Assembly (NCBI GenBank): GCA_964603095.1
Contig: CAZRTR010000003.1
Span: 1-59,509, forward strand
From: an uncultured Planctomycetia bacterium
Lineage (GTDB): Bacteria > Omnitrophota > Gorgyraeia > 1-14-0-20-64-10
DNA: 59,509 nt
Reading direction: 5' to 3'
Position numbers and translations under genes: made by a program. A model generated the notes under the pieces. The model saw only the letters and a program-made list of their open reading frames with translations. It made no database searches and was not told where the DNA came from. Below are positions 304 through 40,634 of the stretch, in pieces. Every line of letters begins with the position of its first letter. Position 1 is the first letter of the stretch.

Positions 304-498
304 ATGAGACGACGGACAAGGGTTCTTGCGTTAGATCGGGCGAACGAGTCCCGTGAGATCCAGTTTGAGCTGGATTTCCTGAGGTCTCTGACTATTGCCC
401 AGCGATTCCGTTTGATGCGGAAGAAAACCCGAGAGCTCCTCCAGCTTCTTCAGCACAGTGGACACCGAAGGCCTCCTCAAATTCTTCAAAGAGCATAA
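304..498 (+). CDS. small basic/helical protein, partner of nucleotidyltransferase (cassette 1)
   Basis: 64-aa ORF from an internal ATG of track ORF 226..498. It overlaps the downstream NTase by 41 nt. The same arrangement occurs at 7066 and 40692. Confidence 0.4.
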   Translation: MRRRTRVLALDRANESREIQFELDFLRSLTIAQRFRLMRKKTRELLQLLQHSGHRRPPQILQRA

Positions 499-922
499 GG
501 TCGATTTTGTCGTTATCGGGGCGACCGCCTTCCCGGTTCACGGTTATGCCCGCGCCACCCTCGACATCGACCTGTTCATTCGGCCGGCTCCAACCCATGC
601 CAAGCGGGCCTGGGTTGCTTTAAAGGCGTTCGGCTACGATATGGCCGACATTCCGATGGAGAGTCTTTTGCACAAGAAGCTCTTGATTCGCCAGTACGCG
701 GTGGAGGCCGATATTCATCCATTCGTGACCGGTGTGACATTCGACCGAATCTGGAAGAATAAGGTAGGGGCCAAATTCGGGAAGACAGCGGTCCACTTCG
801 CCTCCCTGGCTGATCTCATTGCTATGAAACGTGCTGCGGGTCGCCCCAAGGATCGGGAAGACCTGAAGTATCTCCTTCGCCTCAGGAAAGCGGAGTCCGA
901 CCTGCGCCGACAGGTAAAATAG
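458..922 (+). CDS. minimal nucleotidyltransferase-fold protein (paralog 1)
   Basis: Contains VVIGATAFPVHGYARATLDIDLF (G-x-D-x-D NTase core) and a C-terminal LIAMKRAAGRPKDREDLKYL motif. Both are shared with ORFs 7268 and 40901. The stop lies 2 nt before ATG 925. Confidence 0.75.
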   Translation: MDTEGLLKFFKEHKVDFVVIGATAFPVHGYARATLDIDLFIRPAPTHAKRAWVALKAFGYDMADIPMESLLHKKLLIRQYAVEADIHPFVTGVTFDRIWKNKVGAKFGKTAVHFASLADLIAMKRAAGRPKDREDLKYLLRLRKAESDLRRQVK

Positions 923-924
923 AG

Positions 925-3900
925 ATGTCGATGATCAGACGTCGGGTCGCTGCGATTTTCCTGATCCTTTCCTTATCCTTTCCAGATTCCAGCTACGCCC
1001 TGCGCCAGACCGGGCTGGAGGAATCCCGCCCCACCCGCCAGCAGCTGATCGACTCCCTTACCGGGGGTTTGGAGGAATCAGCGCAAGAGCCGGACGAAGA
1101 TCAACTCCTGGCAGAGGTGGGGAAGAGTTGGCAGTACCGGATCAAGGATGAGAGGGGCCTGCACATCGATGCGCTCGAGGGTGCCCTGGGCGGAAGTAAA
1201 GCCAGAACCCTGCTGCTTCATTCTGCCTTCAAACAGTTCGACGGGGACATCTATCGGCTGCCGCCGGGGCTGTTTGACCTTCCGGTCTGGCAGAGCCCGG
1301 AGACCGGCGCCCTCTACTGGGGTTGGGATACGCTGGCCCAGCTTTCGGATGGTGAAATCCAAGATGCCTTTTCGAACAGCGATTTTGAATCGATTGCGGT
1401 GGTGCATCCAAAAGAACAGCCCCCGCCATCTCCTCCGAAGCAGGAAGCTGTTCTTCCAGCCGTAGGGCCATCGTTTCCTCAAAACAGTGAACCTATACCC
1501 CAGTCCGTCTTGCCGGTGGGACAAGAGCCCAGGCAGGCATCGCCGGTCGATGAGAGGCCGTCTGAGCCAGGCCAGATTAAGGTGAAGGCACCTTCGGCTA
1601 GGGTATCCTACAAACCGGACGATCTGGAACAGCTTTCCTTTTTGGAGCTGGGCGAGGAGATCCTGGATTCGGAGAAGAGCCGCGGGCGCTCTGCGGGGAG
1701 AACCGGGCGGCTATACAAGGGATATCTCCAGGAATTCGAGGGGGACGAGAAGCGACTTCCCGGAGCGGTTGAGAACGACGAGCAAAAGGCACGAAGGGTT
1801 GCCTTGGCTGCCCTGAATGAAGCGAGGCGGTCCCGCCATCTGCCTTCGGTTACGGGGAAGATGCTCGTTGAGAACAGCCGCAATCCCAAGGTGCTGAGGC
1901 AGTTTGAGTTCGTTTTCCGACAGATCGTTTCCAGTGTCTCCAGGGTATATGAAGGACTCCGGTTTGATCGGGAGCAGGGCCTTCCTGCCAGACCAGAGCC
2001 GCCGGAGGGGTCCCGCTCTCCCCAGGAGTATCTGCAAGCGCTAAGGAGCTGGCTCCTCTATGAAGATTGGAAGGAAAGTCATCTGAGTGCCCCTACCTTT
2101 GGCGTTGGATTCGTGGATTTCGGTGCTGACCGTACCTTGGGCGATCCGGTTCCCTTTGGAATCCTTTCGGTACTGGCAGTTCGTCAGATAGGGATGGAGC
2201 CTTCGATCCGCTGTTTCCCGGAGCTTGCCAGGGGATTGGTCGAAAAGGGGGTGACGAAGGTCGAGTATCTCCCTCCGGTTCCAGGGAATCCCCCGGCCTT
2301 GCGGGTCCAGTTCAAAGATCCGATGAGGGATCGCGATACCGCGATGGTGCTTCCCGCTCTGGCTATGGCCGTGCTGAAGGTGCCCCTGCCGGATCTTCCC
2401 TCCCGAGAGGGCCAGAGGGAAGGGGTAGATCTGTCGGATGAGGAGCTTCTTGAGGAAGCCGACCGTTCCATTCGCCATGAGTTGGAATCGGTGGAGTGGG
2501 ATGAGCAGGAGCTCCGCTCACTCGTTTTCACAGAGGATGACCCGTTGGATCAGAGGGTGGCTCGGTTGGAGAAGCTCGTCCGTCTTGCTTTAGAGGGGAA
2601 ACTCCTCCCCCGCTCTGGCTACGACCTTTACTCCGAAGAAGGGAGCCGGCGCTTTGCCCGTTGGCTGGGCCGCACATCCCGAGAGCAAAGGGTCATTCAG
2701 CGGGATCTTAAGATCAAGTTCCAGGATGCCGCTGAGCGGTTGGGTTGGAGACGCCCCCCCGCCACTGCCCAGGTCCAGCAGGAATTGGCCGACCGCTTCG
2801 ATGAGTGGAGCCAGATTCAGCAGGCCTTGCTTCAGCTGGGTGTTCCGGAACGCACAGGCGATCCTCAGGCCGAAAGGAGAGTGCAGCGGATGGTTAAGCG
2901 TCACCTCCTTGATCTGGCCACCCTTGGCTATCTTCCTCTGCTGCGGCTTTTACTGGTGGCCCGAAGCCCGGAGGATTCCTGGCTGCTTTCCCAAGGGGAT
3001 GAGAGGCATCTCTCGAACCGGCTTGAGAAATTTCGTCGTACTCTTCAGGATGCCGGTTCGATTGTCAAAGAGCTGGCCTCTTCGCTGACGGAATCGGACC
3101 GGGCCATCTTCCTGGCTGAGCTGAACCATGCGGTTCTTCGTGCCTTACCTGCCAAGCCCAAGGAGCCGTTTAGGCAGACCACGATGGATGCCGTGCAAGG
3201 GACGTTGGTGCGGCTCAACGCTCAGCTCCTGGGGGCCGATCCGGAGCGGTCCCCTACCGCGCTGATGCTGAGGCGTCAAGAGCGGGATGCCCTGGTGGAA
3301 GCGGTCCGCTCAACGCAGGAACGGATCTGGGAATTGGCCCGCAGTGATATCAGCCGACCCGGAACGGATGAAATGGAGCGTGCCGTCTCCGAGCTGGAAA
3401 CCGCTGCTCGAGAATTGCCGGCCCTCGGGTTAACTCTCTCGCTGGATCCGCCTCCACCGGTTCGACTCGATTCCCCACCGGTGTTCCAGCAGGATCTCAC
3501 TCAACTTCGTTCATGGGTTGTCTCCTCTCTCCAACAGGCGCCGGAGACAGAGCCGGCGGCCGATTTGGCGCAAGCCGGCCTCTACCGGATGCTCCTGGAG
3601 CTGCGGATGCTGGAGGAGATGGGGGATGTCCAGGAAGCATTCCAAAAGAGTCAGGAGGTACTGTCCCGGCTGGGTCCTGCGCAGGGGGAGAAGTTCCTCC
3701 CCATCCGCAATCGAGCGCAGGCCGCCAAGCGTCGTGCCGACCAGCAGGCCCAAGAGGCGGCTTTGCAGCGCCCTTCTTCTCTCCAAGAGCGGGCCGCGGC
3801 GATATTGGGGAGCAGGGAATATCAGACTGCGATTGGAAACAACCGCCTGCTGCAAGAGTTTCTCGGCGCTGTTGCCGAAAACAGAGCGGGGTTCTTCTCA

Positions 3901-6900
3901 CCGGCTAAGCGGAAGCGGTTGGAGAGATTTCTCCGAGGGAAGGGGGCCCGCCTGGCCGAGCCGTTCCAAACCGTCTTAGATCTGCTTTCCGGAACCGAAC
4001 CCCGCGCCGGCCTGGAGGAGCAGGAGCTGAAGAGGTTCAACGCGGATGATCCCACCGGAGGAGCGGAGCAGGCGCTAGCACTGGCCCAAGCGGGGCAGCC
4101 GGCCCTTCTGGTGACCGATCAGACCGATCCATCGTTGATCAGGGACGATCGGATGCTCGTGATGAATCTCCAGATCCGAAACGAAAGTCCTTATGGGGCC
4201 AGACGGTACGTTGGCCGGATGAAGGCCTCTAGGATTGGAGAAGGAGAGTGGGCCTACTTCAAGATCGACTCCACCCTGAAGGGTCCGTGGGTGGAAGCGG
4301 CGAAACAACTGGCGGAGAAGCTCCAGCCGGAGATCCTCCTGGTGGCGCCGGCCAACGTGGCTCAGGGCCGAGTCACTCGTCAGGGAGTGCACGGGTTCCT
4401 CAAGGAGGAGGGTCGTCAGGAGACGTTTGTCCCTCTCCACCAAACGGAGTACGCCGGTTTCTTGGATGGGACACTGACCGAGGCAGGGTCCGATCTAACC
4501 GAATATCTCACCCGGCATCAGATTCGTCCCGTGGTCCATCTTGGGTTTTCGGTAATTGAACGTGGGGTGAAGGATGTGGGGATCTTCCTCCAAGGGATCC
4601 CCTCGGGGGCATGGGTGGTGGCGGATGCGGTGAAGCCGGAGCATCTGGCTGTGTTGGCCCAGGCGGTCAAAGAAACGGATCGTTCCTTCCTCTGCTGCGG
4701 ATCCGCAGGACTTTTCGTTGAACTGGTCAAACCGGATTCTCCGGTTCCGTTGGTCTCCTGGGTGGAACAGCTTCAGACGGCCCGGAGGGGCAGGGGAAAG
4801 ATTCTCGTCTTGGCCGGGTCCCGCAATTCCGTCTCTTTGGATCAGGTGAATCAGGCGTTGCGTGATTTCCCTGATCGGGGGAGCCGAGTCCTGGTGGAGA
4901 CCAAGCCCCTTTTCAGCCGGCGCAAGGGAAGTAGAGAAGGGGTCATCCGGAAGATCCAAGAGGAGGTGCGCCGCGGATGGCGCAAGGGGCAGGGGGTGAT
5001 CCTTCAACTGGACAATTCAATCATCCTTCGGCCCGGCACACCTCAGCAGCAGGCCCTTGGAGAACTTTATCGAGGGCTCATCGGGCCACAAGAGGGGAAG
5101 AATCCGTTGGGGCTCCTGGTCGTCTTTGGCGGCGATACCCTGGATACGGTCTTGAGGGCCTTTCACGCGGGCTACACCGCCAGGGCGGAGGTGACTTACC
5201 GAAGCGGCGAGCCGGCCACCAACGTCTCCTACGGGGAGCTGCTTGCCCCGGATCGGCCCCCTTTGCCGATGGTAGTCAAGTCGGAAGGGTTCGGGCGGCC
5301 GGAGCTTCTTTCGGATCTGTTGATCCAGACCAAGGTCATCGCCACTCCTCGGCTGGCGGTGACGATGGGGGATCCGGCAGGAAGCGGCCCGGAGCTACTT
5401 TGGAGGGCCCTGGTCGAGCAGCCGGAGCTTCTGGAGGAGTCGGATCTGATCGTGGTGGGGGATTCGGCGGTCTTGAAGAGGGCCAAGGAATACTGGGCGA
5501 TCCGGTCCCGACCAGGCAAGAGGTTACGGATCCGACCGATTCAACGGATCGAGGAGGCCGAATTCGGACCTGGAATTCTGAACGTTCTCGATCTGGGAAA
5601 CGTCGATCCGATCCTCTTGGAGCGAAGCTTCGGGCCCGTCGGGATCTCCGATCTGGACGACGAGACACGCCGACACTTTGGGCGGGCGGCGCTCCAGTAC
5701 CTGGATGCGGCGATCGAGTTGGCTTCGGCCGGGAACGTGGATGGCATCGTTACGCTGCCCGTCACCAAGGAGGACATCGCCTTGGTTGAACCCGGTTTCC
5801 GGGGCCACACCGAATACCTGGGGGAGCGGCTGGGCACCTTGAACGGCTCCGGCGAGGTGACGATCGCTTTGATCCACGGCCCCTTGAGAGTCCTTCATGT
5901 GACGACCCACAAGTCCCTGCAAGAAGTGGTCGAGCAATTCCAAGATCCGGCGATCACCGAGCAGATTCTGGAGCGGATTCGGATCGCCGCCCAGATGGGG
6001 AGACGGTATTTTGGATTGGAGAACCCCCGCATCGGAGTGTTGGGGCTGAATCCTCACGCGGGTGAGGGGGGCCTGCTGGGGGAGGAAGACCAGAAACGGA
6101 TCCAGCCGGCGATCGATCTCGCGTTGCAAGAGGGCCTGAACGTAAGCCCCCACCCGGTCCCGGCCGACACCGCTTTTTCTCCCGAGATGCGCGGCCAGTG
6201 GGATTTCCTGATCGCCATGTTCCATGACCAGGGCCACGGACCTTTCAAGACGGTCGCCGGCTTGAAAGGGGTCAACTTCACCGGGAACCTGGCGGTTCCC
6301 CGGATCAGCCCCGATTTTGGAACCGCCCGCAGGGAGGCGTGGAACCGGCAGCGATCCCGCGATCTTTCTCCCCAGGGCGTCGGTGTGGCGATCCGCACCT
6401 TGGCCCAGATGATCGCCGCCGGCCGACAAGTCGACCGCGCCGGGCTCGAGGAGAACCCGATGGATGCGCGGGTGGATCGGGCGTGGGCATGGGCGGCCGG
6501 GGGCCGGCGTCAGCTTCGAGAGGCGGCTCTGGAGGCGTTGAGAGTCGTTGAGTACGTGGCTTTAGAGGGGGTGCCGTTTACCCCTAGGGCGAGAGCCAGG
6601 GCTTGGGGGATCCTTTCGCAGGCGCACGTCCTCTTTGGGCTTTCGGATGCCTCTGTGTTCTTGCCGGCGGTGAGAGTGTCCTGGGGCTTGTCTCTCTTTG
6701 GAATCCGTTCCAGGTGGCTTCTTTCTGCAACCCTCCGGATGTACCATCGAAAACACAATGGCATGAATCCGTCCCGGGTTCTGGCGCAGCGTTGGTTCAG
6801 CGACCCCCAGGCCGGGCTGGAGGAGCCGATGATTCCCTTGCCGATGGGACTCCGGGACCTGTTCGAAGATTACCTTCAAAGCCAGGCCGGGCTGGAGGAG

Positions 6901-6909
6901 GCGGCCTGA
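925..6909 (+). CDS. giant 1,994-aa multidomain protein: signal-like N-terminus, ~1,000 aa unknown region, DUF1537-type acid-sugar kinase, PdxA-like dehydrogenase, C-terminal tail; six xGLEE motifs
   Basis: Uninterrupted 5,985-nt ORF. The N-terminus has RRR followed by hydrophobic AAIFLILSLSF..SSYA. Kinase signatures: ADDPTGG, FKIDSTLKG, VAPANVAQGR. PdxA signatures: GDPAGSGPE, GHTEYL, NPHAGEGG, FHDQGHGP. xGLEE codons lie at 1009, 1063, 4006, 6439, 6811 and 6886. Confidence 0.75.
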   Translation: MSMIRRRVAAIFLILSLSFPDSSYALRQTGLEESRPTRQQLIDSLTGGLEESAQEPDEDQLLAEVGKSWQYRIKDERGLHIDALEGALGGSKARTLLLHSAFKQFDGDIYRLPPGLFDLPVWQSPETGALYWGWDTLAQLSDGEIQDAFSNSDFESIAVVHPKEQPPPSPPKQEAVLPAVGPSFPQNSEPIPQSVLPVGQEPRQASPVDERPSEPGQIKVKAPSARVSYKPDDLEQLSFLELGEEILDSEKSRGRSAGRTGRLYKGYLQEFEGDEKRLPGAVENDEQKARRVALAALNEARRSRHLPSVTGKMLVENSRNPKVLRQFEFVFRQIVSSVSRVYEGLRFDREQGLPARPEPPEGSRSPQEYLQALRSWLLYEDWKESHLSAPTFGVGFVDFGADRTLGDPVPFGILSVLAVRQIGMEPSIRCFPELARGLVEKGVTKVEYLPPVPGNPPALRVQFKDPMRDRDTAMVLPALAMAVLKVPLPDLPSREGQREGVDLSDEELLEEADRSIRHELESVEWDEQELRSLVFTEDDPLDQRVARLEKLVRLALEGKLLPRSGYDLYSEEGSRRFARWLGRTSREQRVIQRDLKIKFQDAAERLGWRRPPATAQVQQELADRFDEWSQIQQALLQLGVPERTGDPQAERRVQRMVKRHLLDLATLGYLPLLRLLLVARSPEDSWLLSQGDERHLSNRLEKFRRTLQDAGSIVKELASSLTESDRAIFLAELNHAVLRALPAKPKEPFRQTTMDAVQGTLVRLNAQLLGADPERSPTALMLRRQERDALVEAVRSTQERIWELARSDISRPGTDEMERAVSELETAARELPALGLTLSLDPPPPVRLDSPPVFQQDLTQLRSWVVSSLQQAPETEPAADLAQAGLYRMLLELRMLEEMGDVQEAFQKSQEVLSRLGPAQGEKFLPIRNRAQAAKRRADQQAQEAALQRPSSLQERAAAILGSREYQTAIGNNRLLQEFLGAVAENRAGFFSPAKRKRLERFLRGKGARLAEPFQTVLDLLSGTEPRAGLEEQELKRFNADDPTGGAEQALALAQAGQPALLVTDQTDPSLIRDDRMLVMNLQIRNESPYGARRYVGRMKASRIGEGEWAYFKIDSTLKGPWVEAAKQLAEKLQPEILLVAPANVAQGRVTRQGVHGFLKEEGRQETFVPLHQTEYAGFLDGTLTEAGSDLTEYLTRHQIRPVVHLGFSVIERGVKDVGIFLQGIPSGAWVVADAVKPEHLAVLAQAVKETDRSFLCCGSAGLFVELVKPDSPVPLVSWVEQLQTARRGRGKILVLAGSRNSVSLDQVNQALRDFPDRGSRVLVETKPLFSRRKGSREGVIRKIQEEVRRGWRKGQGVILQLDNSIILRPGTPQQQALGELYRGLIGPQEGKNPLGLLVVFGGDTLDTVLRAFHAGYTARAEVTYRSGEPATNVSYGELLAPDRPPLPMVVKSEGFGRPELLSDLLIQTKVIATPRLAVTMGDPAGSGPELLWRALVEQPELLEESDLIVVGDSAVLKRAKEYWAIRSRPGKRLRIRPIQRIEEAEFGPGILNVLDLGNVDPILLERSFGPVGISDLDDETRRHFGRAALQYLDAAIELASAGNVDGIVTLPVTKEDIALVEPGFRGHTEYLGERLGTLNGSGEVTIALIHGPLRVLHVTTHKSLQEVVEQFQDPAITEQILERIRIAAQMGRRYFGLENPRIGVLGLNPHAGEGGLLGEEDQKRIQPAIDLALQEGLNVSPHPVPADTAFSPEMRGQWDFLIAMFHDQGHGPFKTVAGLKGVNFTGNLAVPRISPDFGTARREAWNRQRSRDLSPQGVGVAIRTLAQMIAAGRQVDRAGLEENPMDARVDRAWAWAAGGRRQLREAALEALRVVEYVALEGVPFTPRARARAWGILSQAHVLFGLSDASVFLPAVRVSWGLSLFGIRSRWLLSATLRMYHRKHNGMNPSRVLAQRWFSDPQAGLEEPMIPLPMGLRDLFEDYLQSQAGLEEAA
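4036..5340 (+). other. domain region: four-carbon acid sugar kinase (DUF1537) N- and C-terminal domains within the giant ORF
   Basis: aa ~1038-1472. NADDPTGGAEQALALAQAG matches the family's N-terminal DDxTG motif, alongside FKIDSTLKG. The nucleotide-binding half has VLAGSRNSVS...VFGGDT. Confidence 0.65.
5350..6420 (+). other. domain region: PdxA-family (4-phospho-hydroxy-acid) dehydrogenase within the giant ORF
   Basis: aa ~1476-1832 carry the PdxA motifs listed above. The usual D-H-G-T-A is D-F-G-T-A here. Confidence 0.7.
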
Positions 6910-7065: not shown

Positions 7066-7347
7066 ATGAGCGTCGGACGTTCGAAGGTTCGGGTCGGGGA
7101 GCAGGCCGCCCAACGATATCAGGCCTTCAGGGATCTGTTGGATTTCTCTGAAGAGCTGGCCCTGGCCGGAATGAGGTCCCAGGGGCTTTCGGAAGACCAG
7201 GGTTGGCAGGTCTGGCGCCGACGCTGGGCGAAGGCATCTCTCGAACATCAGAAGACCAACCGGAAGGTTGCCAAACTCCTTGCGGCACGGGATAGGGTCC
7301 TCCAGCCCGCTCCACGAAGCGCTCGAGAAGATCGTCGAGCTGCTTGA
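7066..7347 (+). CDS. small protein, partner of nucleotidyltransferase (cassette 2)
   Basis: 93-aa ORF overlapping the NTase ORF. It occupies the same position as ORFs 304 and 40692. Confidence 0.4.
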   Translation: MSVGRSKVRVGEQAAQRYQAFRDLLDFSEELALAGMRSQGLSEDQGWQVWRRRWAKASLEHQKTNRKVAKLLAARDRVLQPAPRSAREDRRAA

Positions 7348-7843
7348 ACGCCGGCGTATCCCCTACATGGTGATGGGAGGGCTGTCTCTCTCCGTCTGGG
7401 GACGTGTCCGGGCGACCCAGGATGTTGATCTGGCGGTGGCGTTGGATCCGGGACAAGAGCCGGACTTCCTCCGGGCGATTCGGAAGCAACATTTTCTTCC
7501 TGCGCCTGCGCGGGCCATGCTGGGCCACCGGCTTCTGGTCTGTCGGTATCTGAAGCCGACTCGAGGATTGCCCTTACAGGTTGACCTCTTCCTTGCGCGG
7601 GGGGAGTATCAACAGCAGGCCCTGGCCCGGGCGGTATCCGTCCGGTTGGGCGCTCGATCTTTCCGGGTCATTGCGCCGGAGGATTTGATTCTGTACAAGC
7701 TCCTGGCCGATCGTCCCATTGACCATCTCGACATCCAGACGATCGTTCAGGAACAGAAAGGCCGGTTGGACAGGAGATATTTGATTCAATGGGCCAGGTC
7801 CCTCCGACTCTCCAGGCGACTGAGTTCCGTTCTAAAGGTCTGA
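7268..7843 (+). CDS. minimal nucleotidyltransferase-fold protein (paralog 2)
   Basis: Contains MVMGGLSLSVWGRVRATQDVDLAV and PEDLILYKLLADRPIDHLDIQTIV, and is clearly homologous to ORF 40901. The exact start is uncertain (ATG 7268 or TTG 7280). Confidence 0.75.
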   Translation: MPNSLRHGIGSSSPLHEALEKIVELLERRRIPYMVMGGLSLSVWGRVRATQDVDLAVALDPGQEPDFLRAIRKQHFLPAPARAMLGHRLLVCRYLKPTRGLPLQVDLFLARGEYQQQALARAVSVRLGARSFRVIAPEDLILYKLLADRPIDHLDIQTIVQEQKGRLDRRYLIQWARSLRLSRRLSSVLKV

Positions 7844-18494: not shown

Positions 18495-19994
18495 ATGACT
18501 CGCGACCTCCCCCAGCTCTCCAACCAAACCTTCGACCTCCTGGTCATCGGCGGGGGCATCCTCGGCGCCGGCATCGCGTGGGACGCCGCCACCCGGGGGC
18601 TCTCCTGCGCCTTGGTGGAGCAGGGGGACTTCGCCGGCGGAACCTCCTCCAAGACGACCAAGCTGATCCACGGCGGGATCCGTTATCTTGAAAATCTGGA
18701 GTTCAAACTGGTCCGGCAATCGATCCGGGAGCGCTGGTGGCTGCTGCGCTTCGCCCCGAACCTGGTCAAGCCGTTGCCGTTCCTCGTCCCTGTGGTCGGG
18801 AACTCTCCCCGGCCCTGGCCGTTGGTGAAGATCGGCGTTTTCCTGTACGACCTTCTGGCCGGCAAGCGCTCGATCCACCCCCACCGGTTCCTGAACCGAT
18901 CTGAAGTGGAACAGATGGAGCCGCTCCTGCGTCAGGTGAAGGTCCGGAAGGGGGCCCTCTATTACGACGCCCAGATGGATGACGCCGGTCTCGTTCTGGA
19001 GGCGCTCAAGGCCGCCTCCCAGGCCGGGGCGAAGGCGGCCAATTACTGTCCGGTCACCCGGTTCCTTTCGCAAGGGGGCCGCCTGGTCGCAGCGGAGGTG
19101 GAGGATCGGTTGACCGGCAAACGGTTCGAGGTCCGCGCCCGGCTGCTGATCAACGCCACCGGCCCCTGGGTCGACCGCCTGCGCCGGTTAGCCGATCCCG
19201 CCGCCAAGCCGATCGTCCGCCCCTCCAAGGGGATTCATCTCCTCTATCCGGATTTGGGGCTCAGGCAGGCGCTGCTCCTCTCCTCCCCCAGCGACCAGAG
19301 GATCTTCTTCTTAATCCCCTGGCGGGGGATGACCCTGATCGGCACCACCGACACCGACTATTCCGGCGATCCGGGCGCCGCCCGCGCCGAGCCGTCCGAC
19401 GTGGAATATCTGATCCGTGAGACGAACCGGCTCCTCCCGAAGCTTCGGCTCGACCCCAAGAAGATTATCTCCACCTTCGCCGGGGTCCGTCCCCTCGTTG
19501 CCCAGGAGAAGAAAGATCCCTGGGCGGTCAGCCGCGGCCACCTCATCCACGAAGATTCCAACGGTCTCCTCAGCATTGTCGGCGGCAAGTTCACCACCTT
19601 CCGGATGATCGCGCAGGATCTCGTCGACCGGGTTTCTCCCCGACTGCCGGGAAAAGGGATCGGCCCCTGCCGGACCGGGCAGCTTCCCCTGGGTCGCGCC
19701 GAGGAGAAAGAGAGGATGATCCGAGGATGGATCGAGCAGGATCCCTCCCTAGCGCAGCCCCTGTGCCCCCACCATGCGTTCCGCAAGGCCGATCTCCGCT
19801 ACGCCGTAGAGGAAGAGATGGCCCTCCACCTCTCCGGCCTCCTGTTCCGCCGTCTCGGAGTCGCCTGGTCCCCCTGCCAGGGCCTCGACTCTCTCGACTC
19901 CGCCGCCGACTACCTCGGCCATCTCCTCGGCTGGGACCCCGCCGAGCGCCAGCGCCAAATCGCCGCCTACCGCCAGGAGATCTCGCTCGGGTAA
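18495..19994 (+). CDS. glpD: FAD-dependent glycerol-3-phosphate dehydrogenase
   Basis: DLLVIGGGILGAGIAWDAATRG, TSSKTTKLIHGGIRYL and position next to glpK support the call. Confidence 0.88.
   Translation: MTRDLPQLSNQTFDLLVIGGGILGAGIAWDAATRGLSCALVEQGDFAGGTSSKTTKLIHGGIRYLENLEFKLVRQSIRERWWLLRFAPNLVKPLPFLVPVVGNSPRPWPLVKIGVFLYDLLAGKRSIHPHRFLNRSEVEQMEPLLRQVKVRKGALYYDAQMDDAGLVLEALKAASQAGAKAANYCPVTRFLSQGGRLVAAEVEDRLTGKRFEVRARLLINATGPWVDRLRRLADPAAKPIVRPSKGIHLLYPDLGLRQALLLSSPSDQRIFFLIPWRGMTLIGTTDTDYSGDPGAARAEPSDVEYLIRETNRLLPKLRLDPKKIISTFAGVRPLVAQEKKDPWAVSRGHLIHEDSNGLLSIVGGKFTTFRMIAQDLVDRVSPRLPGKGIGPCRTGQLPLGRAEEKERMIRGWIEQDPSLAQPLCPHHAFRKADLRYAVEEEMALHLSGLLFRRLGVAWSPCQGLDSLDSAADYLGHLLGWDPAERQRQIAAYRQEISLG
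19919..19972. repeat. 54-bp perfect direct repeat, left copy (inside glpD 3' end)
   Basis: Identical to 21377..21430. Its flanks are similar but diverged, mostly at synonymous positions. Confidence 0.9.
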
Positions 19995-20159: not shown

Positions 20160-21272
20160 ATGGAACCCTTTATCGCTCAGTCTGTTCCGGTTACCAACGT
20201 CGACCTGGTTTCGCTGATTCCGCTCATCGGTCCAGCCAACCGAGCCGTAGCGCATTATGACGGCCTGCTCTATGGGATCCGGAACCCCCACGTTCTTTTA
20301 TCACCCTTGACGACGCAAGAAGCAGTCCTGTCCTCCCGCATTGAGGGAACTCAGGCGACGCTGGGAGAAGTGCTGAAATATGAAGCAGGTGAAGAGCCGG
20401 CGCAGGAGTCCAGGCGGCAGGACATCCAGGAAATCATCAATTACCGCCATGCCCTGCGCAGGGCGCAAGAGATCCTCAAGACCAAGCCGTTCCATCTGAA
20501 CCTGCTGTTGGAACTGCATGCCATCCTGCTGAACAGCGTGCGCGGTCGAGACAAGGAGCGTGGCCGGTTCCGGACAAAGCAGAATTGGATCGGTCCTCCG
20601 GACTGCCCCATCGAGCAGGCCCGCTTCGTACCGCCGGAACCGATGAGTGTCCCCGGACTGCTGGACAACTGGGAAAAGTATTATCACCGCGAAGAGCCCG
20701 ATGTGTTGGTGCAGCTGGCCGTCCTCCATGCGCAGTTCGAGATCATCCATCCGTTCGTGGATGGCAACGGTCGCATCGGCCGGCTGCTCCTGCCGCTGTT
20801 TCTCTACGAGAGGCGGCTGCTGTCCAAACCGATGTTCTATTTGTCCGCCTACTTCGAACGGCATCGTGACGAATATTACGAGCGCCTCCGCCCTCTCGGC
20901 GCATCGCAGGATGCCTGGAACCAATGGATTGCCTTCTTCTTGAAGGCGGTGTGTGAACAAGCCGATGAAAATACCAAGAAGGCGCGCCAGATCCTTGATC
21001 TCTATGAGCGGTTGAAAGATCGGGTGCGCGAGCTGACCCACTCGCAGTTTGCCGTGCCTTTATTGGATCGGTTGTTCGATCAACCCATCGTGCAGACCAC
21101 CGAACTTGCCCGTCATCGGTCCATGCCGAGCCGCCCGATGGTGATGGTCCTTTTGGGGAAGCTGAGAGCCGCCGGAATTCTGAAAACGGTTCGCCCCGGC
21201 AGCGGCCGCAGGGCCGAGGTGCTGGCCCTGGCCGAGCTCATCAATCTCTGCGAAGGGAGAAAGGTGTTTTGA
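20160..21272 (+). CDS. Fic family protein (AMPylase-type) with N-terminal inhibitory motif and C-terminal wHTH-like region
   Basis: Fic motif HPFVDGNGRIGR. SSRIEG matches the [ST]xxxE[GN] inhibitory helix. Confidence 0.88.
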   Translation: MEPFIAQSVPVTNVDLVSLIPLIGPANRAVAHYDGLLYGIRNPHVLLSPLTTQEAVLSSRIEGTQATLGEVLKYEAGEEPAQESRRQDIQEIINYRHALRRAQEILKTKPFHLNLLLELHAILLNSVRGRDKERGRFRTKQNWIGPPDCPIEQARFVPPEPMSVPGLLDNWEKYYHREEPDVLVQLAVLHAQFEIIHPFVDGNGRIGRLLLPLFLYERRLLSKPMFYLSAYFERHRDEYYERLRPLGASQDAWNQWIAFFLKAVCEQADENTKKARQILDLYERLKDRVRELTHSQFAVPLLDRLFDQPIVQTTELARHRSMPSRPMVMVLLGKLRAAGILKTVRPGSGRRAEVLALAELINLCEGRKVF

Positions 21273-21376
21273 CCAGAACTAAGCAGACTGCACACATCGG
21301 TATGTCTCAGGTCGGCTGAAAGCCGCTTAGACCGGTTCACCGGCAGAAAGATCAGCCCCTGTCAGGGCCTCGCCTC

Positions 21377-21430
21377 CCATCTCCTCGGCTGGGACCCCGC
21401 CGAGCGCCAGCGCCAAATCGCCGCCTACCG
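21377..21430. repeat. 54-bp perfect direct repeat, right copy (displaced glpD 3' remnant)
   Basis: Reads HLLGWDPAERQRQIAAYREEISLAG-stop, compared with the glpD end HLLGWDPAERQRQIAAYRQEISLG-stop. Confidence 0.9.
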
Positions 21431-21648
21431 GGAGGAAATATCTCTTGCCGGTTGATAGCAAATTTCCTTCCAACGGGACCTTTCTTCTGTTACAATTTGA
21501 ATCACTTTACCGTCACCCGTCTGGCTAGGGGGATAGAAGTAGTGGAAGCCGATAACCTGTCCCTCGGTACGCGGTGCCGATTGGGCGCGCGAACTATAAC
21601 TTTGAGTGCCTTATTTTGAACAGGAAGGATGTTGGGAGCCTTCTGCTG

Positions 21649-22563
21649 CTAGCGGATGAACTGTCCTCCCGGTATGTCTCCCCCGGAACTGCTTGGCATG
21701 GTCAAAGGGGCCACTTTTATGGCCCACTCGCAGAAACCGCACTCGCTGTCGGCCGACGGGCATGAGCGCTTGGAAAGCAGATCAACCGCTTCCCTGAAAA
21801 TCTTCCGTGCCCGTTCGGGGTCGGTGTCCACCTTGACCGGATGCATGTGGAAGGTGATCCGGCCCCCGTCGTTCTGCTCGAGAGGATGGTAGAAGACCAG
21901 GTAGGCGCAGCCGGCGGTCTGGTAGCCGTTTTCCTGTAGCAGCAGCGTGTAGATGTTGAGCTGATCCTGGTAGTAGGACGGCGTATCCTCCTTTACGGGG
22001 TAGCCCCGGGTTTTGTAGTCCAGCGGAAGGTAACGGTCCTCCTGAACCAGGCAATCGTCCAGAAGCCCCATGAGAGTCGCCCCGACCTCCTTGTCGGAAT
22101 ACCGCAGGCCCCGGTGGCGGGCACGCCAGAGGTCCAGCAGCTTCTGGTCCGGGAACAGCGTCCCTTCCAGTTTCCCTTCGAGCTCGGGCGGGAGCTTCCC
22201 CAGGACCCGGAACCGGTCGAAGTACTTTTTGATGATGCCGTCCATGCCCCCCGGCAGCGAAGGAAAGATCGTATCGGGCCGGCTGATCCCCTTGACCTTT
22301 TCCAGCCAGAAGCAGCGTGGACACTCCGTAAAGAGACTCAGCGAACTGTAGGAGAGGCAGATCTGCTTTTCGGCCACAGACCGGATACTACCACTCAGGA
22401 GGCGTGGGTGACAACCCGGAGATTTTGCTTGCCCCCTTGGCGCCGGGGGTCTCTTGGGCTGGGACCCCCCCTCCAACGTCAGATCGATTCCTACCGCCAG
22501 GAATGCAGCGCCTGACAGGATGCGTGAGGCGTATAATGTGGGAATACAGGAGGTTTGAGACAT
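21649..22563 (-). CDS. PD-(D/E)XK nuclease, Cas4/RecB-like with Cys cluster
   Basis: Contains CPRCFW...LPLDYK...QLNIYTLLL...CPSADSECGFCEW (1+3 Cys, D..D/ExK, QxxxY). The true start may be GTG 22377. Confidence 0.7.
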   Translation of the reverse strand: MSQTSCIPTLYASRILSGAAFLAVGIDLTLEGGSQPKRPPAPRGQAKSPGCHPRLLSGSIRSVAEKQICLSYSSLSLFTECPRCFWLEKVKGISRPDTIFPSLPGGMDGIIKKYFDRFRVLGKLPPELEGKLEGTLFPDQKLLDLWRARHRGLRYSDKEVGATLMGLLDDCLVQEDRYLPLDYKTRGYPVKEDTPSYYQDQLNIYTLLLQENGYQTAGCAYLVFYHPLEQNDGGRITFHMHPVKVDTDPERARKIFREAVDLLSKRSCPSADSECGFCEWAIKVAPLTMPSSSGGDIPGGQFIR

Positions 22564-22637
22564 GGCGGATGGCGGGTTTTTAGTCAGGTTTGAGGGAAAG
22601 GAACCCCAAAGGTGTTACGCGGTAGAATTCGATTACG

Positions 22638-24113
22638 ATGAGCGGTCCTACGCGATCAACGGAGGAAAAAAGGAGGAGATACCCAAGGGGATCCAGAGGA
22701 TCATTATTGAGGTCGAGGAGACCGGCCTTTGACTTGAAACGCGTCGCCCCCGCTTTTCTGCTGCCCCTCCTCTTGGCAACCGCCGCCTCCGCCCATCCCG
22801 CCGACGTCGAAAACATCCTGCCTGACCGCTACTTTGAAGTCGCACGGAACGAGATCCAACGGGCGGAATCCTCCATCCGCCTCTACATGTACCTGATCGC
22901 CCTTCCGCCGAACCGGCTGAATTCCAAGGTCTACCGCCTGGTAGACGCGCTGGTGGAGGCCAAAGACAGGGGTGTGGACGTTCAGGTGATGCTGGACCGG
23001 AATATTGACTGGAAGGATGAAAGCAACCTCGGTTTCTGGGACTCCGCCGGCAAGAATGCCAGGGCCTACAGTTACCTCCGGGAGAAGGGAATCAGCGCCT
23101 ATTTTGATGACGAGGCGATCTTCACGCACGCCAAGGTGCTGGTGATCGACCGGAAAACCGTGATTCTGGGCTCGGCAAATTGGAGCGAGGCGGCATTGGC
23201 CCGCAACCTGGAAGCCAATGTTCTGATCCGGTCCGAGGAGTTCGCCAAGGAGGTCCTGGAGCGCTTTGAGGGGTTGGAGCTCCACACCCCGGAGGGTGGG
23301 AACTCTGAGACCGTCGCGGTGCCGCAGCCCTTCTTGAGCAGTAAACACCTGTTGGGACGGATGGTGACCGATGCTGATGAACGGGCTTTTGACGCCTACC
23401 TCTTTCTACTAAGGGTCTTCGGCGAGGAAGAGCAAGGGAAAGAAAAGGTTGTGGATTACGAGCCGCTCAAGGTGGCGCTTGGAATTCGGGGCAAGAGCGA
23501 ATGGAATAACAGGCGGGCTGTCAGAAGGGTTCTGGATCGGCTACAGGACAAGTATAGGTTGATCGCCGTCTCTTACAGGCGGGGAGATGAGCCGGCGGTC
23601 TCTCTAAAGGCGATAGAAGGCCGGACCGGGCCAGGCGTCGCTTCAGAGACGGCACCGGTGGAGATTCCCGTCACCTACTGGGAATGGGATTGGAATAAAG
23701 AGCTGAGCTTCGCGGGGAAGGTGATGTACGTTCTGGGGGCTATGTATTCCTCCGCGTCGACGACGGCCCCGAGATGGTTCAGGTCAACGGGCGATCTGGC
23801 GAAGAGGCACGGTTTCACAAGGAGTTTTGTTGAGGATGGATTTATGGACTTGCGGCGGCGTAACCTGGTGGAGGTGGAACCGGGCCGGCTCAACCCGGCA
23901 AACTACAGCGACCGGAAGGCGAACCGGTACGCTCCAAACCCGTTGTACGATCCCAAGGAGCTGGAACAGGCATTCCGCAGACTGGAGGAACGGCATGGAG
24001 CGGAGAAGGTGAAGAAGGCCGCTGGCTACGCTGCGCTGGTTTATGAGGGTAGCGATGAAGATGGGAAGGTGATGAAAGGTGGCGGGTCGACCCGACCCCT
24101 TGGAAATGGTTGA
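22638..24113 (+). CDS. secreted phospholipase D/Nuc-like (single HKD) protein with ~270-aa C-terminal extension
   Basis: HKD motif HAKVLVIDRKTVILGSANWS. Signal-like KRVAPAFLLPLLLATAASAHPA. The probable real start is TTG 22734. Confidence 0.75.
   Translation: MSGPTRSTEEKRRRYPRGSRGSLLRSRRPAFDLKRVAPAFLLPLLLATAASAHPADVENILPDRYFEVARNEIQRAESSIRLYMYLIALPPNRLNSKVYRLVDALVEAKDRGVDVQVMLDRNIDWKDESNLGFWDSAGKNARAYSYLREKGISAYFDDEAIFTHAKVLVIDRKTVILGSANWSEAALARNLEANVLIRSEEFAKEVLERFEGLELHTPEGGNSETVAVPQPFLSSKHLLGRMVTDADERAFDAYLFLLRVFGEEEQGKEKVVDYEPLKVALGIRGKSEWNNRRAVRRVLDRLQDKYRLIAVSYRRGDEPAVSLKAIEGRTGPGVASETAPVEIPVTYWEWDWNKELSFAGKVMYVLGAMYSSASTTAPRWFRSTGDLAKRHGFTRSFVEDGFMDLRRRNLVEVEPGRLNPANYSDRKANRYAPNPLYDPKELEQAFRRLEERHGAEKVKKAAGYAALVYEGSDEDGKVMKGGGSTRPLGNG
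24072..24094. repeat. 23-bp perfect direct repeat, left copy (inside PLD gene 3' end)
   Basis: atgaaaggtggcgggtcgacccg, identical to 24798..24820. Confidence 0.9.
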
Positions 24114-24135
24114 AAGAGCGTGACTCAAGTGGTAT

Positions 24136-24166
24136 CCTATGTATGGTAGTGTGTACCATACATAGG
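24136..24166. promoter_or_regulatory. 13-bp perfect inverted repeat (putative VapB operator)
   Basis: cctatgtatggta-gtgtg-taccatacatagg overlaps the TGGTATCCT -10-like element (24130..24138), 12 nt before ATG 24178. Confidence 0.55.
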
Positions 24167-24177
24167 AGGGTTGACCA

Positions 24178-24381
24178 ATGACGACGAAGATCACCACCTA
24201 TATCGATGAGCAGTTGCTCAAGAAGGCCCTGAAGGTGTCCCGGTCCAAGTCGAAACGGGAGGTTTTGGAGAGCGGCCTGCGTACCCTGTTGGCGGAGGTC
24301 CAGCGCAACACCTTCGTCAGGGAATTTGACCACCTGCGCCTGCGCCTTTCTCCGGAGGAGCTTGCGCGGTCCCGCCGTTAG
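24178..24381 (+). CDS. vapB: type II antitoxin, VapB-like
   Basis: 67 aa with N-terminal TTYIDEQLLKKALK, located 3 nt upstream of a PIN gene. Confidence 0.8.
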   Translation: MTTKITTYIDEQLLKKALKVSRSKSKREVLESGLRTLLAEVQRNTFVREFDHLRLRLSPEELARSRR

Positions 24382-24384
24382 AGA

Positions 24385-24801
24385 ATGGCGCTGGTTCTGA
24401 TCGACACCTCGGCCTGGATCTTTAACTTCCCACCCAGAACCGTACCGGCCATCCGGACTCGGATCACGGAGTTGCTTCAGCGGGATCAGGCCGCGGTGAC
24501 CTCTCCCATCCTCTTTGAGCTCCTGCAGGGAGCTCGATCGGGCGACCAGTTTCGGCAGATGCACCAGCGCCTCTCCGGCCTTCACCCGTTTCCTCTCACG
24601 GAGGTGGATTGGCTGAAGGCGGCCCAGTGGGCCTGCCGGCTCCGGGCCGGCGGAATCACGGTGAAGACCGTCGATTTCCTCATTGCCTACAAGGCGATGA
24701 GGCATAGGCTGACCCTGCTTCATGCGGATGCAGATTTCGATCGTTTGGCCCGCTTGGTTCCATTAAAGGTGGAAAGTTTCGTCCGGCAGGTGCGTTCATG
24801 A
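24385..24801 (+). CDS. vapC: PIN-domain toxin, VapC-like
   Basis: LIDTSAWI at the N-terminus, with conserved acidic residues (E in ILFELLQG, D in TVDFLIA, D in HADADFD). Confidence 0.85.
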   Translation: MALVLIDTSAWIFNFPPRTVPAIRTRITELLQRDQAAVTSPILFELLQGARSGDQFRQMHQRLSGLHPFPLTEVDWLKAAQWACRLRAGGITVKTVDFLIAYKAMRHRLTLLHADADFDRLARLVPLKVESFVRQVRS

Positions 24802-24820
24802 AAGGTGGCGGGTCGACCCG
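24798..24820. repeat. 23-bp perfect direct repeat, right copy
   Basis: Overlaps the vapC stop codon. Confidence 0.9.
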
Positions 24821-24914
24821 GGAAACGCGGACCGGGGACGAGGGAGATAGCTGATGGAGGCGGACGGGGTTTTTGAGGGGGGCGGGGAATCACCCTTGCG
24901 GAGTGAGATTTTTT

Positions 24915-38892: not shown

Positions 38893-38917
38893 AATGAGTA
38901 GAGAAGAGGAGGAATGG

Positions 38918-39280
38918 ATGGGTGCTGTCCACGTTAAGGTAAAGTTGTTGGGGTTGCCGGACCGCCCAGTTGAGCCGCAAACGGTTGAGGCGCTGGTCGA
39001 TACCGGAGCTACTCTTTCTATTCTGCCAGGAGCGCTGTTGAGGAAAGTGGGTGTTAAATCGCTTCATTCAGTAAGGACCCGGCTAGCGGACGGAACCATT
39101 GTCCGGCGGTCTGTCGGTGAGGCAAGATTAAAACTGAACGGCGAAATCGTCACTACGCGCGTCCTTTTCGGTCAGAAACATGATGCCACCGTCATCGGTC
39201 TGGTCACTCTGGAGAGCTTAGGTCTTACCGTGGATCCTGTCCGCCGCCGCCTCGTCCACACCGATTATCTGATGCTGTAG
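38918..39280 (+). CDS. retropepsin-like aspartic protease (single domain)
   Basis: ALVDTGATLSILP (D-T-G-A catalytic motif) and the later VIGLVTLESLGL. AT-richer than its neighbours. ATG 38894 is an alternative start. Confidence 0.75.
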   Translation: MGAVHVKVKLLGLPDRPVEPQTVEALVDTGATLSILPGALLRKVGVKSLHSVRTRLADGTIVRRSVGEARLKLNGEIVTTRVLFGQKHDATVIGLVTLESLGLTVDPVRRRLVHTDYLML

Positions 39281-39371: not shown

Positions 39372-40634
39372 ATGATCAAGCAAACGAAGATTCAAGCTAT
39401 CCCGATCTGGCTACTCATCTTCACGCTGGCCATCCCGCCTACTTCCGCCCACGCCCTGCGGCACGCCGTTCGCCCTGAGCCTGTCGAAGGGCAGACCCTG
39501 TGCAACATGAACGCCGAGCGTGCCGGCCTCGAGGAGGAGCTCACGCGAGCCCTCACCGGCTCCGCCGGGCTGGAGGAGAAGAAGCGGATCGCGAGGAGGG
39601 ATCTGCTGGCATGGGGCATTGGGGTGGCATCCGGGGTGCCGGCCACGTTGGCGGCCCTGGCGGTCAGAGAGGCCCTGTGGAGGGGTCACTCGACACTACC
39701 GATGGTTCGACTTCCCATCCCCCTGCCCAAGGCGTCTGTCGGAGAGAAGGACCTCCGGGTGAATCTGCCTGAGGTGTTGGCAGGTCGGGTGGCGGTCCCG
39801 TATCTGCTGATCGGTGACCGGTATCAGCCGCAGCCCTCCCTCAAGACCGTTCCGAGCGATGGAGTTGTGACGTTCCGCATCCAATCCGAGGATCCGGAGG
39901 AATTGTACGTTAACTGGTGGAAGGCCAGAGGGATTCGTATCGTCGTCTTTGAGGACCCAAAAGAGGCGCGGAAGGGCAAAGAAGCGATCATTGTCGTTGC
40001 GATTGGAAAACCAACCATTTTTGGACGTGCCTCGGCCGCCATCATCCGGGGCAAGCTGCCTTCTCTATCGGTTGAGCCGGAGGTGACGATTCAGCCGCCC
40101 GCTGGGTTGGAGGAGGTTCCTCGACTGGCCTCAGCCCTCCGGGGTTTCTTCGCCAACCAGCGATTGACTTCCGCCCCTGTTCCCCAAGAAACGTTGACCG
40201 TTGTGGATTTGACGGCGCCGACAGGGGTCTTGTTGGCGCCGGAACTGCCTCCCGGTGTCATCGGAATCGTCCGGCGGGAGGATTATCCGACGATTCTGCA
40301 GGTGGTTTCTGCAGAGCGGGCCCTTCCGAGGCAAAACGAGCATCTCTTCTTCCTTGAAGACTACCCGGATTTCGTCGAGGCGGTCTGGAGCGTTGTTTCA
40401 AGAAGCGGGTCGGATTTGGAGGGGCTGCGGCTCATCACTGGGCGATCGGGTGAGGAGTTAGGCGGTTTGATCCAGCGATTGAGTGGGCAAGGCCTGGAGA
40501 TCCATCTCGTTCGTGTCAAAACGGCGCAGGATATCCTCAAGCTCCTCTGGGTAAACGACCAGTCCCGTTCCGGTCTGGAAGAACTCCTCCAGCGATCCCA
40601 AGCCAACTGGGTTGCCCTGGCCGATTATCTCTAA
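39372..40634 (+). CDS. hypothetical protein with four xGLEE motifs, N-terminal signal-like segment and RR-hydrophobic segment
   Basis: 420-aa ORF. Its N-terminus resembles the giant ORF's (..SAHALRHA vs ..SYALRQT, followed by GLEE motifs). xGLEE codons lie at 39522, 39564, 40101 and 40569. ARRDLLAWGIGVASGVPATLAALA is Tat-signal-like. ATG 39507 is an alternative start. Confidence 0.65.
   Translation: MIKQTKIQAIPIWLLIFTLAIPPTSAHALRHAVRPEPVEGQTLCNMNAERAGLEEELTRALTGSAGLEEKKRIARRDLLAWGIGVASGVPATLAALAVREALWRGHSTLPMVRLPIPLPKASVGEKDLRVNLPEVLAGRVAVPYLLIGDRYQPQPSLKTVPSDGVVTFRIQSEDPEELYVNWWKARGIRIVVFEDPKEARKGKEAIIVVAIGKPTIFGRASAAIIRGKLPSLSVEPEVTIQPPAGLEEVPRLASALRGFFANQRLTSAPVPQETLTVVDLTAPTGVLLAPELPPGVIGIVRREDYPTILQVVSAERALPRQNEHLFFLEDYPDFVEAVWSVVSRSGSDLEGLRLITGRSGEELGGLIQRLSGQGLEIHLVRVKTAQDILKLLWVNDQSRSGLEELLQRSQANWVALADYL
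39468..39492. repeat. hairpin repeat family C (partial), translated
   Basis: gttcgccc-tgagcctgtcgaa-gggc encodes VRPEPVEG, inserted right after the HALRHA segment. Confidence 0.8.

Follow-up and report, generated by a model that had tools for sequence, protein, structure and literature searches.

A recurrent xGLEE pentapeptide at the module borders of a giant protein from an uncultured Omnitrophota bacterium

The giant proteins known from Omnitrophota and further uncultivated bacteria are very long, mostly carry a signal peptide or transmembrane (TM) segments and string together many enzyme domains, and they have been described as multi-enzyme, membrane-associated molecules (bioRxiv 10.1101/2023.11.21.568195; bioRxiv 10.64898/2026.06.07.730766). 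Whether such a giant chain acts whole or is cut was left as an open question, with no information on cleavage points (bioRxiv 10.1101/2023.11.21.568195), and the text of bioRxiv 10.64898/2026.06.07.730766 describes no punctuating motif. Here we analyze an open reading frame (ORF) of this general layout, located at positions 925..6909 of the forward strand of a 59,509-nucleotide stretch (contig CAZRTR010000003.1 of assembly GCA_964603095.1; hereafter the whole stretch is called 'the window') from an uncultured bacterium assigned to the Omnitrophota. The encoded protein of 1,994 amino acids (aa) contains the pentapeptide xGLEE six times, and we conclude that xGLEE is a short linear motif which is kept by selection and marks the junctions between independently folding modules. 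Unlike the published giants, the family to which this protein belongs is defined by a different, unannotated core. A literature search for AGLEE and SGLEE, and for the strings RSEVR and RAEVR encountered in distant relatives, found nothing relevant.

Several described systems share part of this design. Viral polyproteins (picornavirus 3C, potyvirus NIa, coronavirus Mpro) are likewise long precursors of unrelated modules with a strict short site at each border that varies by lineage; their sites span 4–6 residues, are strictly conserved within a lineage and are kept at each module border. The gene described here, however, is chromosomal, bacterial and syntenic in a second genome, has no relatives in viral contigs, and encodes a putative precursor devoid of a protease domain; given its position and the lack of viral relatives, a phage or other mobile origin was rejected. 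MARTX and large clostridial toxins are giant exported bacterial proteins with several enzymatic cargo domains that are released by cuts in inter-domain linkers. The MARTX sites are loose (Leu-small residue) and do not constitute a strict pentapeptide; Pfam detects neither a cysteine protease domain nor RTX repeats in the giant protein or in its relatives P0002, L004, P0010 and P0015 (see below), and the cargo here consists of metabolic or regulatory enzymes, not of recognised toxins.

In the cyanobactin system (PatE/PatA), the precursor comprises several units, each flanked by a recurring recognition sequence, and PatA cleaves after GLEAS in multi-core precursors (PMC4282754). This site resembles GLEE-S, which is present twice in the giant protein and four times in P0002, but the likeness spans only three to five residues. 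Moreover, the units here are whole domains of 100–800 aa instead of core peptides of 6–8 residues, the putative precursor comprises 1,994 aa and has folded domains, and the window contains no gene for a PatA-like S8 protease, PatG or a heterocyclase; the GLEAS site may thus provide a lead toward a protease with a similar site rather than indicate membership. Finally, the sortase, exosortase and rhombosortase signals (LPXTG, PEP-CTERM, GlyGly-CTERM) are short conserved peptides found in a restricted set of exported proteins and recognised by a dedicated processing enzyme. Each such signal is a single C-terminal copy with a TM helix and a basic tail behind it, whereas xGLEE occurs 4–8 times per protein, mostly internally, and the 2–16 aa behind the last copy are devoid of a TM helix. 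No NCBIfam sorting-signal model matched at E≤1, and known Pfam or NCBIfam repeats or sorting signals were likewise discarded as the identity of the motif since none matched. Hence, we rate the border-motif feature as lying outside the known kinds.

The six copies were found exactly where the original prediction had placed them, with the x residue starting at nucleotides 1009, 1063, 4006, 6439, 6811 and 6886 and GLEE at residues 30, 48, 1029, 1840, 1964 and 1989. GLEE is the top over-represented 4-mer of the protein: only 0.14 occurrences are expected from its composition, and six were not attained in any of 20,000 shuffles. Scanning all six frames of the window revealed one further carrier, an orphan protein of 420 aa (39372..40634, forward strand) with four copies (three AGLEE and one SGLEE; 0.03 GLEE expected), while the remaining matches fall into overlapping, non-coding frames only. 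The 53 other predicted coding sequences (CDSs) of the window (15,055 aa) contain no GLEE at all, compared with 0.59 expected, so that the motif is indeed confined to two credible CDSs, as had been claimed. When six loci are considered together, 36 motif copies are found in 14,496 aa of family and client ORFs, but just one in the 86,994 aa of the remaining six-frame ORFs (100 aa or longer). The shuffles together with the comparison of family and non-family ORFs rule out chance or composition as the source of GLEE. In its general form the motif reads [A/S/T/G]-G-[L/M/V/A]-E-E: among 52 instances, the glycine and the first glutamate are invariant and the second glutamate is present in 47, while the flanking residues exhibit no conservation.

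The modular layout of the giant protein (925..6909; all features given in this paragraph are on the forward strand) can be summarized as putative signal peptide, two motifs, N-domain, core, motif, kinase-PdxA cargo, motif, tail, motif, short segment, and a terminal motif followed by AA. By inspection, the N-terminus (925..1008) resembles a signal peptide, with RRR, a hydrophobic stretch and P-D-S-S-Y-A|L-R (MSMIRRR / VAAIFLILSLSF / PDSSYA|LR), and the same layout is found in the orphan protein, P0002 and the L004 protein; Sec-type features, that is, a basic n-region, a hydrophobic h-region of 10–15 aa and a small-x-small cleavage site, were judged by eye. The two copies predicted behind this N-terminus are TGLEE (aa 29–33; 1009..1023), which aligns with the first SGLEE of P0002, and GGLEE (aa 47–51; 1063..1077), whose aligned counterparts are the second SGLEE of P0002 and, in the L004 protein, the AGMEE at aa 1891. 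They are followed by the N-domain (aa 53–223; 1081..1593), homologous to the segment behind that AGMEE, and by the family-defining core domain (aa 224–~1022; 1594..3990), which is mostly helical with a small β-sheet. The third copy, AGLEE (aa 1028–1032; 4006..4020), is part of the linker that joins the last core helix to the kinase, as expected just ahead of the latter, namely eight residues before the first SBD_N-matched residue (aa 1040). The cargo then comprises, according to both Pfam and NCBIfam, a four-carbon acid sugar kinase (SBD_N + NBD_C; aa 1040–1466; 4042..5322) and a PdxA-like dehydrogenase domain (aa ~1472–1810; 5338..6354). In Pfam, SBD_N (3.5e-26), NBD_C (5.1e-05, below the gathering score) and PdxA (4.7e-67) follow each other in the order that identifies such a kinase-PdxA pair, and since the NCBIfam pdxA and D-threonate kinase matches are below the equivalog cut-offs, no exact substrate is assigned. 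Behind the cargo, the fourth copy, AGLEE (aa 1839–1843; 6439..6453), is found ∼15–30 aa past the end of the PdxA match (aa 1807–1810) and aligns with TTAGLEET of P0007. The two copies claimed for the tail are likewise in place: AGLEE at aa 1963–1967 (6811..6825), whose context SDPQAGLEEP has counterparts in P0002 (KSPQSGLEES) and the L004 protein (RSPQAGAEEE), and AGLEE at aa 1988–1992 (6886..6900), after which only AA and the stop codon follow.

Neither the first 1,030 nor the last 150 aa of the giant protein match any Pfam or NCBIfam family. Kinase and PdxA, which catalyse consecutive steps, are not separated by a motif in either the giant protein or P0007, and no junction motif is located inside a Pfam domain or the core of the giant protein or of P0011. 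In an AlphaFold model of aa 224–1060, computed from nine sequences, the core is confident up to its last helix (aa ~1012–1022), and aa 1024–1060, including AGLEE, have a predicted local distance difference test (pLDDT) score of 34–41. Because of these values, the junction motif is probably situated in a flexible, accessible linker between core and kinase and is not packed on the core.

Comparison with homologs indicates that the positions of the motif are conserved. Using the N-terminal 1,029 aa, a word-indexed search yielded a single match, P0002, from a groundwater metagenome (1,649 aa, 34% identity), whose C-terminal cargo is unlike that of the giant protein. P0002 contains six xGLEE and one AGLEQ: two copies behind its putative signal peptide align with the first two of the giant protein, one ends the shared region and aligns with aa 1028–1032, and the last is at the extreme end (...AGLEEAVREAA). 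The codons used in P0002 (CTC GAA GAA, TTG GAA GAG, TTG GAG GAA; first residue AGC, TCC, GCC, GCT, GCA) differ freely, so that nothing is conserved at the nucleotide level. Within the giant ORF the copies also use different codons (CTG/TTG/CTC, GAG/GAA, first residue ACC/GGG/GCC); the codon variation described originally was thus recovered except for GCT, which among the two motif genes of the window is used only in ORF 39372, and the claim that conservation acts on the peptide and not on the DNA is borne out by motifs kept with other codons, including GAA GAA in P0002. The L004 protein, identified in a metagenome scan (3,597 aa, 28% identity), has the shared region twice in tandem and lacks GLEE, but contains six [AS]G[VMA]E[EQ] (0.3 expected); these AG[VMA]E[EQ] motifs are at unit borders, with one aligning with copy 2 of the giant protein at the start of the second unit and another with the end-of-unit copy.

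Another relative, P0007 (2,835 aa; NCBI assembly GCA_964373805.1), exhibits eight xGLEE with none in any other ORF of the 28.5 kb. Its locus is collinear with the window (giant gene, nucleotidyltransferase/HEPN pair, HAD hydrolase, reverse-strand gene, Transglut_core2, VitK2_biosynth, SDR, NUDIX, inositol monophosphatase), and P0007 is for this reason considered the ortholog of the giant protein. The kinase-PdxA cargo is 55% identical between the two and the core 31%. The motif before the kinase aligns exactly despite unlike flanks (TEPRAGLEEQEL versus NKPTAGLEERWV), as does the motif after PdxA (VDRAGLEEN versus ETTAGLEET). P0002 and P0008 occupy a second syntenic position, with the gene order CDP-alcohol phosphatidyltransferase, PgpA, giant gene and CinA (reverse strand). 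In summary, homologs at 28–34% identity carry [AST]-G-[LMVA]-E-E behind the putative signal peptide, at both core ends and near the C-terminus, and around the kinase-PdxA cargo in the ortholog, while the flanks have diverged; the tandem copies 14–18 aa apart behind the signal peptide are kept in four proteins.

In more distant lineages other motifs take the place of xGLEE. P0011 has 21 copies of R[SAT]E[VLAMT]R, a motif that the other ORFs of its 40.7 kb lack altogether, and its Pfam domains (LOG, protein kinase, FHA) and core are all located between motifs; RSEAR in P0015 and RSE[VL]R in P0010 are top over-represented k-mers, P0019 contains [AS]SLG six times, and AMAK is among the over-represented k-mers of P0022. 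Approximately 10–25 residues upstream of the first core helix (F-x-x-L-[LIV]-x-E-I-L-D) one finds, depending on the lineage, AGLEE, RSEVR, RAEVR, RSEAR or ASLG[TQ], and ∼5–15 residues past the last core helix every lineage has its motif, that is, AGLEE, RSELR, RAETR, RSEAR or ASLGT. Judged from the sequences, such unlike motifs at the same junctions suggest programmed cutting or docking there. The suspicion that these are processing, docking or modification sites at the module borders of a polyprotein-like molecule is thereby strengthened as far as the borders are concerned, both by the other motifs at homologous junctions and by the low-confidence linker of the AlphaFold model.

Further repeats and giant ORFs were noticed around these relatives. 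P0021 contains a unit ...RDVSP.PKSLPA..LQTQPLQ... four times and GAGMIP three times, between TM-rich blocks, and P0022 contains P[LF]AMAK[RKG]P four times; these repeats may represent further lineage-specific punctuation. The ORF upstream of P0015 also has RSE[VA]R twice. Family genes often adjoin further giant ORFs (L089:11890-18324; L091; L088:3-2045), and P0017 is flanked by large ORFs. The P0019 locus encodes a signal-bearing protein of 2,144 aa with a glutamate dehydrogenase domain but no ASLG motif, and the N-terminal 'HIQDAHxNFEAQ' domain of this protein is common to P0010, P0011 and P0018.

The core of ∼800 aa defines a very rare, previously undescribed family of giant proteins with putative signal peptides. 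An exhaustive HMMER search of 1.84 billion cluster representatives with a profile of the shared region (A2) retrieved 26 proteins at E≤0.001, with E=0 for the giant protein itself; family members are often giant (up to 6,894 aa), and the ten family clusters that were looked up are all singletons. No relative of the core was found among GTDB species representatives or in viral contigs, no match in Pfam or NCBIfam, and no significant match in a profile search of PDB sequences. Conserved positions in an alignment of 22 members are mostly L, P, G, F, R and W. The AlphaFold2 model computed from that alignment (pLDDT 89, predicted template modelling score 0.80) is mostly helical with a small β-sheet, and Foldseek searches of the PDB and BFVD libraries gave no match at E<0.001; the predicted fold of the core is thus novel. 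Matches between the C-terminal domains of family members are weak and pairwise only, and stand-alone core proteins (P0020, P0024–26) end exactly at the expected site of the downstream motif. Two members, P0004 (aa ~1460) and P0005 (aa 811), carry one more xGLEE within the core, where two long helices meet, and the core match of P0008 and P0009 stops at this very point, which suggests a sub-module boundary in the core. As for the C-termini, nine of 20 family or client proteins end with -AA (giant protein, P0002, P0010, P0011, P0012, P0014, P0015, P0017, P0019), reminiscent of ssrA/ClpX-type or Tsp/PDZ-type C-terminal recognition; among the same 20, -LELIIQA is found in two and -YL in three, and a second giant protein at the P0019 locus ends with ...LDQAA.

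The motif is not restricted to proteins that possess the core. The orphan protein encoded by ORF 39372 has its four copies at nucleotides 39522–39536, 39564–39578, 40101–40115 and 40569–40583 (forward strand), does not match the core profile, has no relative in Pfam, NCBIfam or BFVD, and is without homolog in a search of 5.8 billion proteins, in the PDB or among family proteins; all it has in common with the family are the motif and the signal-peptide ending (S-A-H-A-L-R), which is of the same type as in the giant protein. An ending P-x-[ST]-[SA]-[YFH]-A-L-R is shared by the giant protein, the orphan, P0002 and the L004 protein, and among the credible CDSs of four scanned loci it occurs only in motif-bearing proteins, the one other match being an ORF of 78 aa without a signal-like N-terminus. 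Likewise, at the P0008 locus an ORF of 1,103 aa without Pfam match (L087:9025-12333) lies beside the family gene and contains [AG]GAEE six times. Since the local motif is also found in unrelated proteins of the same genomes that lack the core, a putative reader of the motif would have to act in trans. Past the Sec-like signal and two motifs, residues 72–100 of the orphan (window positions 39585–39671; ARRDLLAWGIGVASGVPATLAALAV) look like a twin-arginine signal or a TM anchor, which would alter the predicted topology.

We tentatively favor the reading that xGLEE is the recognition site of a lineage-specific endopeptidase which cuts a polyprotein-like precursor into its modules. Several autonomous modules within one ORF, bordered by a recurrent short site, are a hallmark of protease-processed polyproteins and are found here; and because the motif is strict, is present at each module border in exposed linkers, and varies between lineages with its position kept, a specific recognition event is indicated and more than a passive linker. 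In such a scenario, the motif would be displayed in exposed linkers behind the signal peptide, at the core ends, around the kinase-PdxA cargo and before the short C-terminal tail, and a trans-acting endopeptidase specific to the lineage would recognise it and cut both the giant precursor and core-less clients such as the orphan protein into separate modules, as is the case for viral polyproteins, whose protease sites the observed pattern resembles most. Cleavage itself, the cutting agent and the cellular site at which it might act are features that we infer.

Several observations weigh against this reading. The 22 aligned members have no conserved set of catalytic-looking residues in the core, Pfam detects no peptidase domain in the family proteins, and no peptidase gene recurs beside family genes across the loci examined. 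In view of the missing catalytic residues and of the lack of any fold or sequence match to a peptidase, the core was rejected as an autoprotease. The only endopeptidase-like gene near a motif protein encodes a retropepsin-like aspartyl protease of 128 aa (Asp_protease_2, gag-asp_proteas; 38894..39280, forward strand) directly upstream of ORF 39372, but this pairing is absent from the gene tables of the other loci. Furthermore, a cut at the last copy would remove just 2–16 residues (e.g., AGLEE|AA), for which a purpose is not obvious, the extra copy of P0004 and P0005 is within the helical part of the core, though at a helix-helix junction, and export via a Sec signal is hard to square with cargo enzymes that depend on ATP or NAD.

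It is possible, although we put this forward with some reserve, that these proteins constitute cellular polyproteins in a wider sense, like beads on a string: a core of ∼800 aa with novel predicted fold and variable enzyme cargo would follow a signal peptide, every junction would bear a pentapeptide of a 'punctuation code' (AGLEE, RSEVR, ASLG...) co-evolving with a lineage-specific reader, and unrelated core-less proteins of the same genome would use the same code. For the question of what becomes of giant bacterial chains, our finding supplies concrete candidate sites, that is, a strictly conserved pentapeptide at module borders and different motifs in independent lineages, and the occurrence of the same motif in unrelated proteins of one genome implies that a dedicated system recognises it. 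If the sites are cut, cellular bacteria would employ a virus-style polyprotein logic for the delivery or joint regulation of several enzymes; with a protease as the reader, the motifs would for the first time predict from sequence where giant bacterial proteins are cleaved, and proof of simple processing would make the system a bacterial variant of the polyprotein logic. If the sites are instead bound, a new peptide-motif scaffolding system would emerge. Either way, giant ORFs that are otherwise intractable can be divided at the motif, so that their modules are accessible to structure prediction and annotation, and the family itself is a rare one with a confidently predicted fold that has no match in the PDB and BFVD libraries searched.

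Binding without cutting is the alternative that deserves most attention, even though we consider it somewhat unlikely. The pentapeptide would then be a docking motif for a lineage-specific reader, possibly the fast-evolving core acting in trans, and core-bearing giants and clients such as the orphan would assemble into a multivalent complex or an array attached to the envelope. Accessible linkers and both protein termini are suitable places for such a motif, the AGLEEAA at the extreme C-terminus suits binding better than cutting, and the conserved tandem copies 14–18 aa apart behind the putative signal peptide of four proteins fit avidity. The core, moreover, has no catalytic signature and evolves faster than the cargo (31% versus 55% identity between orthologs), as one would expect if it co-evolved with the motif, and the occurrence of the motif in core-less proteins agrees with clients being recruited. 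On the other hand, the AlphaFold model leaves the adjacent motif off the core (pLDDT 34–41), a weak argument that derives from a shallow alignment and concerns binding in cis only; docking of the motif on the core of the same chain was rejected on this basis, the segment being apparently disordered. The best-conserved surface motifs of the core (NPPAL, GRT, RQxG) are identical in lineages with unrelated pentapeptides, and having one strict site at each module border is a pattern more often associated with processing than with scaffolding.

It appears improbable that xGLEE is a passive structural element, that is, a favored helix N-cap or linker ending which was spread by domain shuffling within one family and is recognised by nothing. 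G-x-E-E is a plausible capping sequence, the DSSP trace of the AlphaFold model begins a low-confidence helix at L-E-E, and the core copy of P0004 and P0005 is at a helix start. Capping, however, does not require an invariant glycine and glutamate over 52 instances at a background identity of 28–34%, nor does it account for the unrelated RSEVR and ASLG at homologous junctions, for the motif in orphan proteins without homology to the family, or for its absence from the other 15,055 aa of window proteins.

Still less probable is a site of post-translational modification, e.g., of the glutamates, for which DUF6036 or MNT-like nucleotidyltransferases encoded beside motif genes would be candidate enzymes. 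All three DUF6036/DUF2204 genes of the window adjoin the two motif genes, a 30%-identical DUF6036 gene is directly upstream of P0010, and NTP_transf_2 and HEPN genes are beside the giant gene of P0007. Yet these nucleotidyltransferases resemble ordinary toxin-antitoxin modules of the kind that accumulates in accessory regions, and they are absent from the loci of P0002, P0008, P0011, P0015, P0019 and L004. RSEVR and ASLG have no acceptor residue in common with GLEE, and the invariant glycine and glutamate are, to our knowledge, not acceptors for MNT-type AMPylation, which targets tyrosine. A nucleic-acid signal, finally, with the Shine-Dalgarno-like GGAGGAG of GGN-CTG-GAG-GAG marking internal starts or pause sites, is highly improbable and was rejected, the string being incidental: although CTGGAGGAG encodes four of the giant ORF's six copies and two are followed by ATG 3–6 nucleotides past GGAGGAG (GLEENPM, GLEEPM), the codons of P0002 (listed above) and of ORF 39372 (CTG GAA GAA) share no common nucleotide string, the small residue before the glycine is conserved, and the motifs of other lineages are not Shine-Dalgarno-like.

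Turning to the neighborhood, a DUF6036 nucleotidyltransferase gene (458..922, forward strand) ends two nucleotides before the giant ORF, and a functional link between the two is possible. The other DUF6036/DUF2204 genes of the window are located at 7268–7843 and 40901–41473, and further neighbors of relatives are found at L090:133-633 (the DUF6036 gene upstream of P0010) and at L085:130-447 and 18620-19370. Such adjacency may have a functional basis, or it may reflect no more than the toxin-antitoxin clutter of accessory regions. PADLOC had no match for the giant protein, the orphan protein, the retropepsin-like ORF or the three nucleotidyltransferases, and a known anti-phage defence system was rejected accordingly. 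GC content at third codon positions (GC3) is ∼0.67–0.75 in both motif genes, the flanking nucleotidyltransferases and the 20–26 kb region, compared with ∼0.85 in housekeeping genes, and codon scores are lower too; this suggests low expression or an accessory origin of these genes, though the giant gene has a syntenic counterpart in a second genome. The GC3 of the retropepsin-like ORF is below that of core genes.

Elsewhere in the window, which contains no tRNAs, a low-GC island (20160–26448; GC 0.57–0.59) encodes a Fic/DOC protein, a PD-(D/E)XK nuclease, a signal-bearing PLD-like protein, a VapB-PIN pair, and an NTP_transf_8 (AbiEii-like) protein with its upstream partner, and is a probable defence or toxin-antitoxin island. 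The PDH E1 gene shares 59–68% identity with genes of many phyla, the highest value (68%) being reached by a Nitrospira metagenome-assembled genome. Within 42309–44816, a single ORF of 835 aa fuses the complex I subunits NuoB (20 kDa), NuoC (30 kDa) and NuoD (49 kDa), followed by NuoI-like and NuoH genes.

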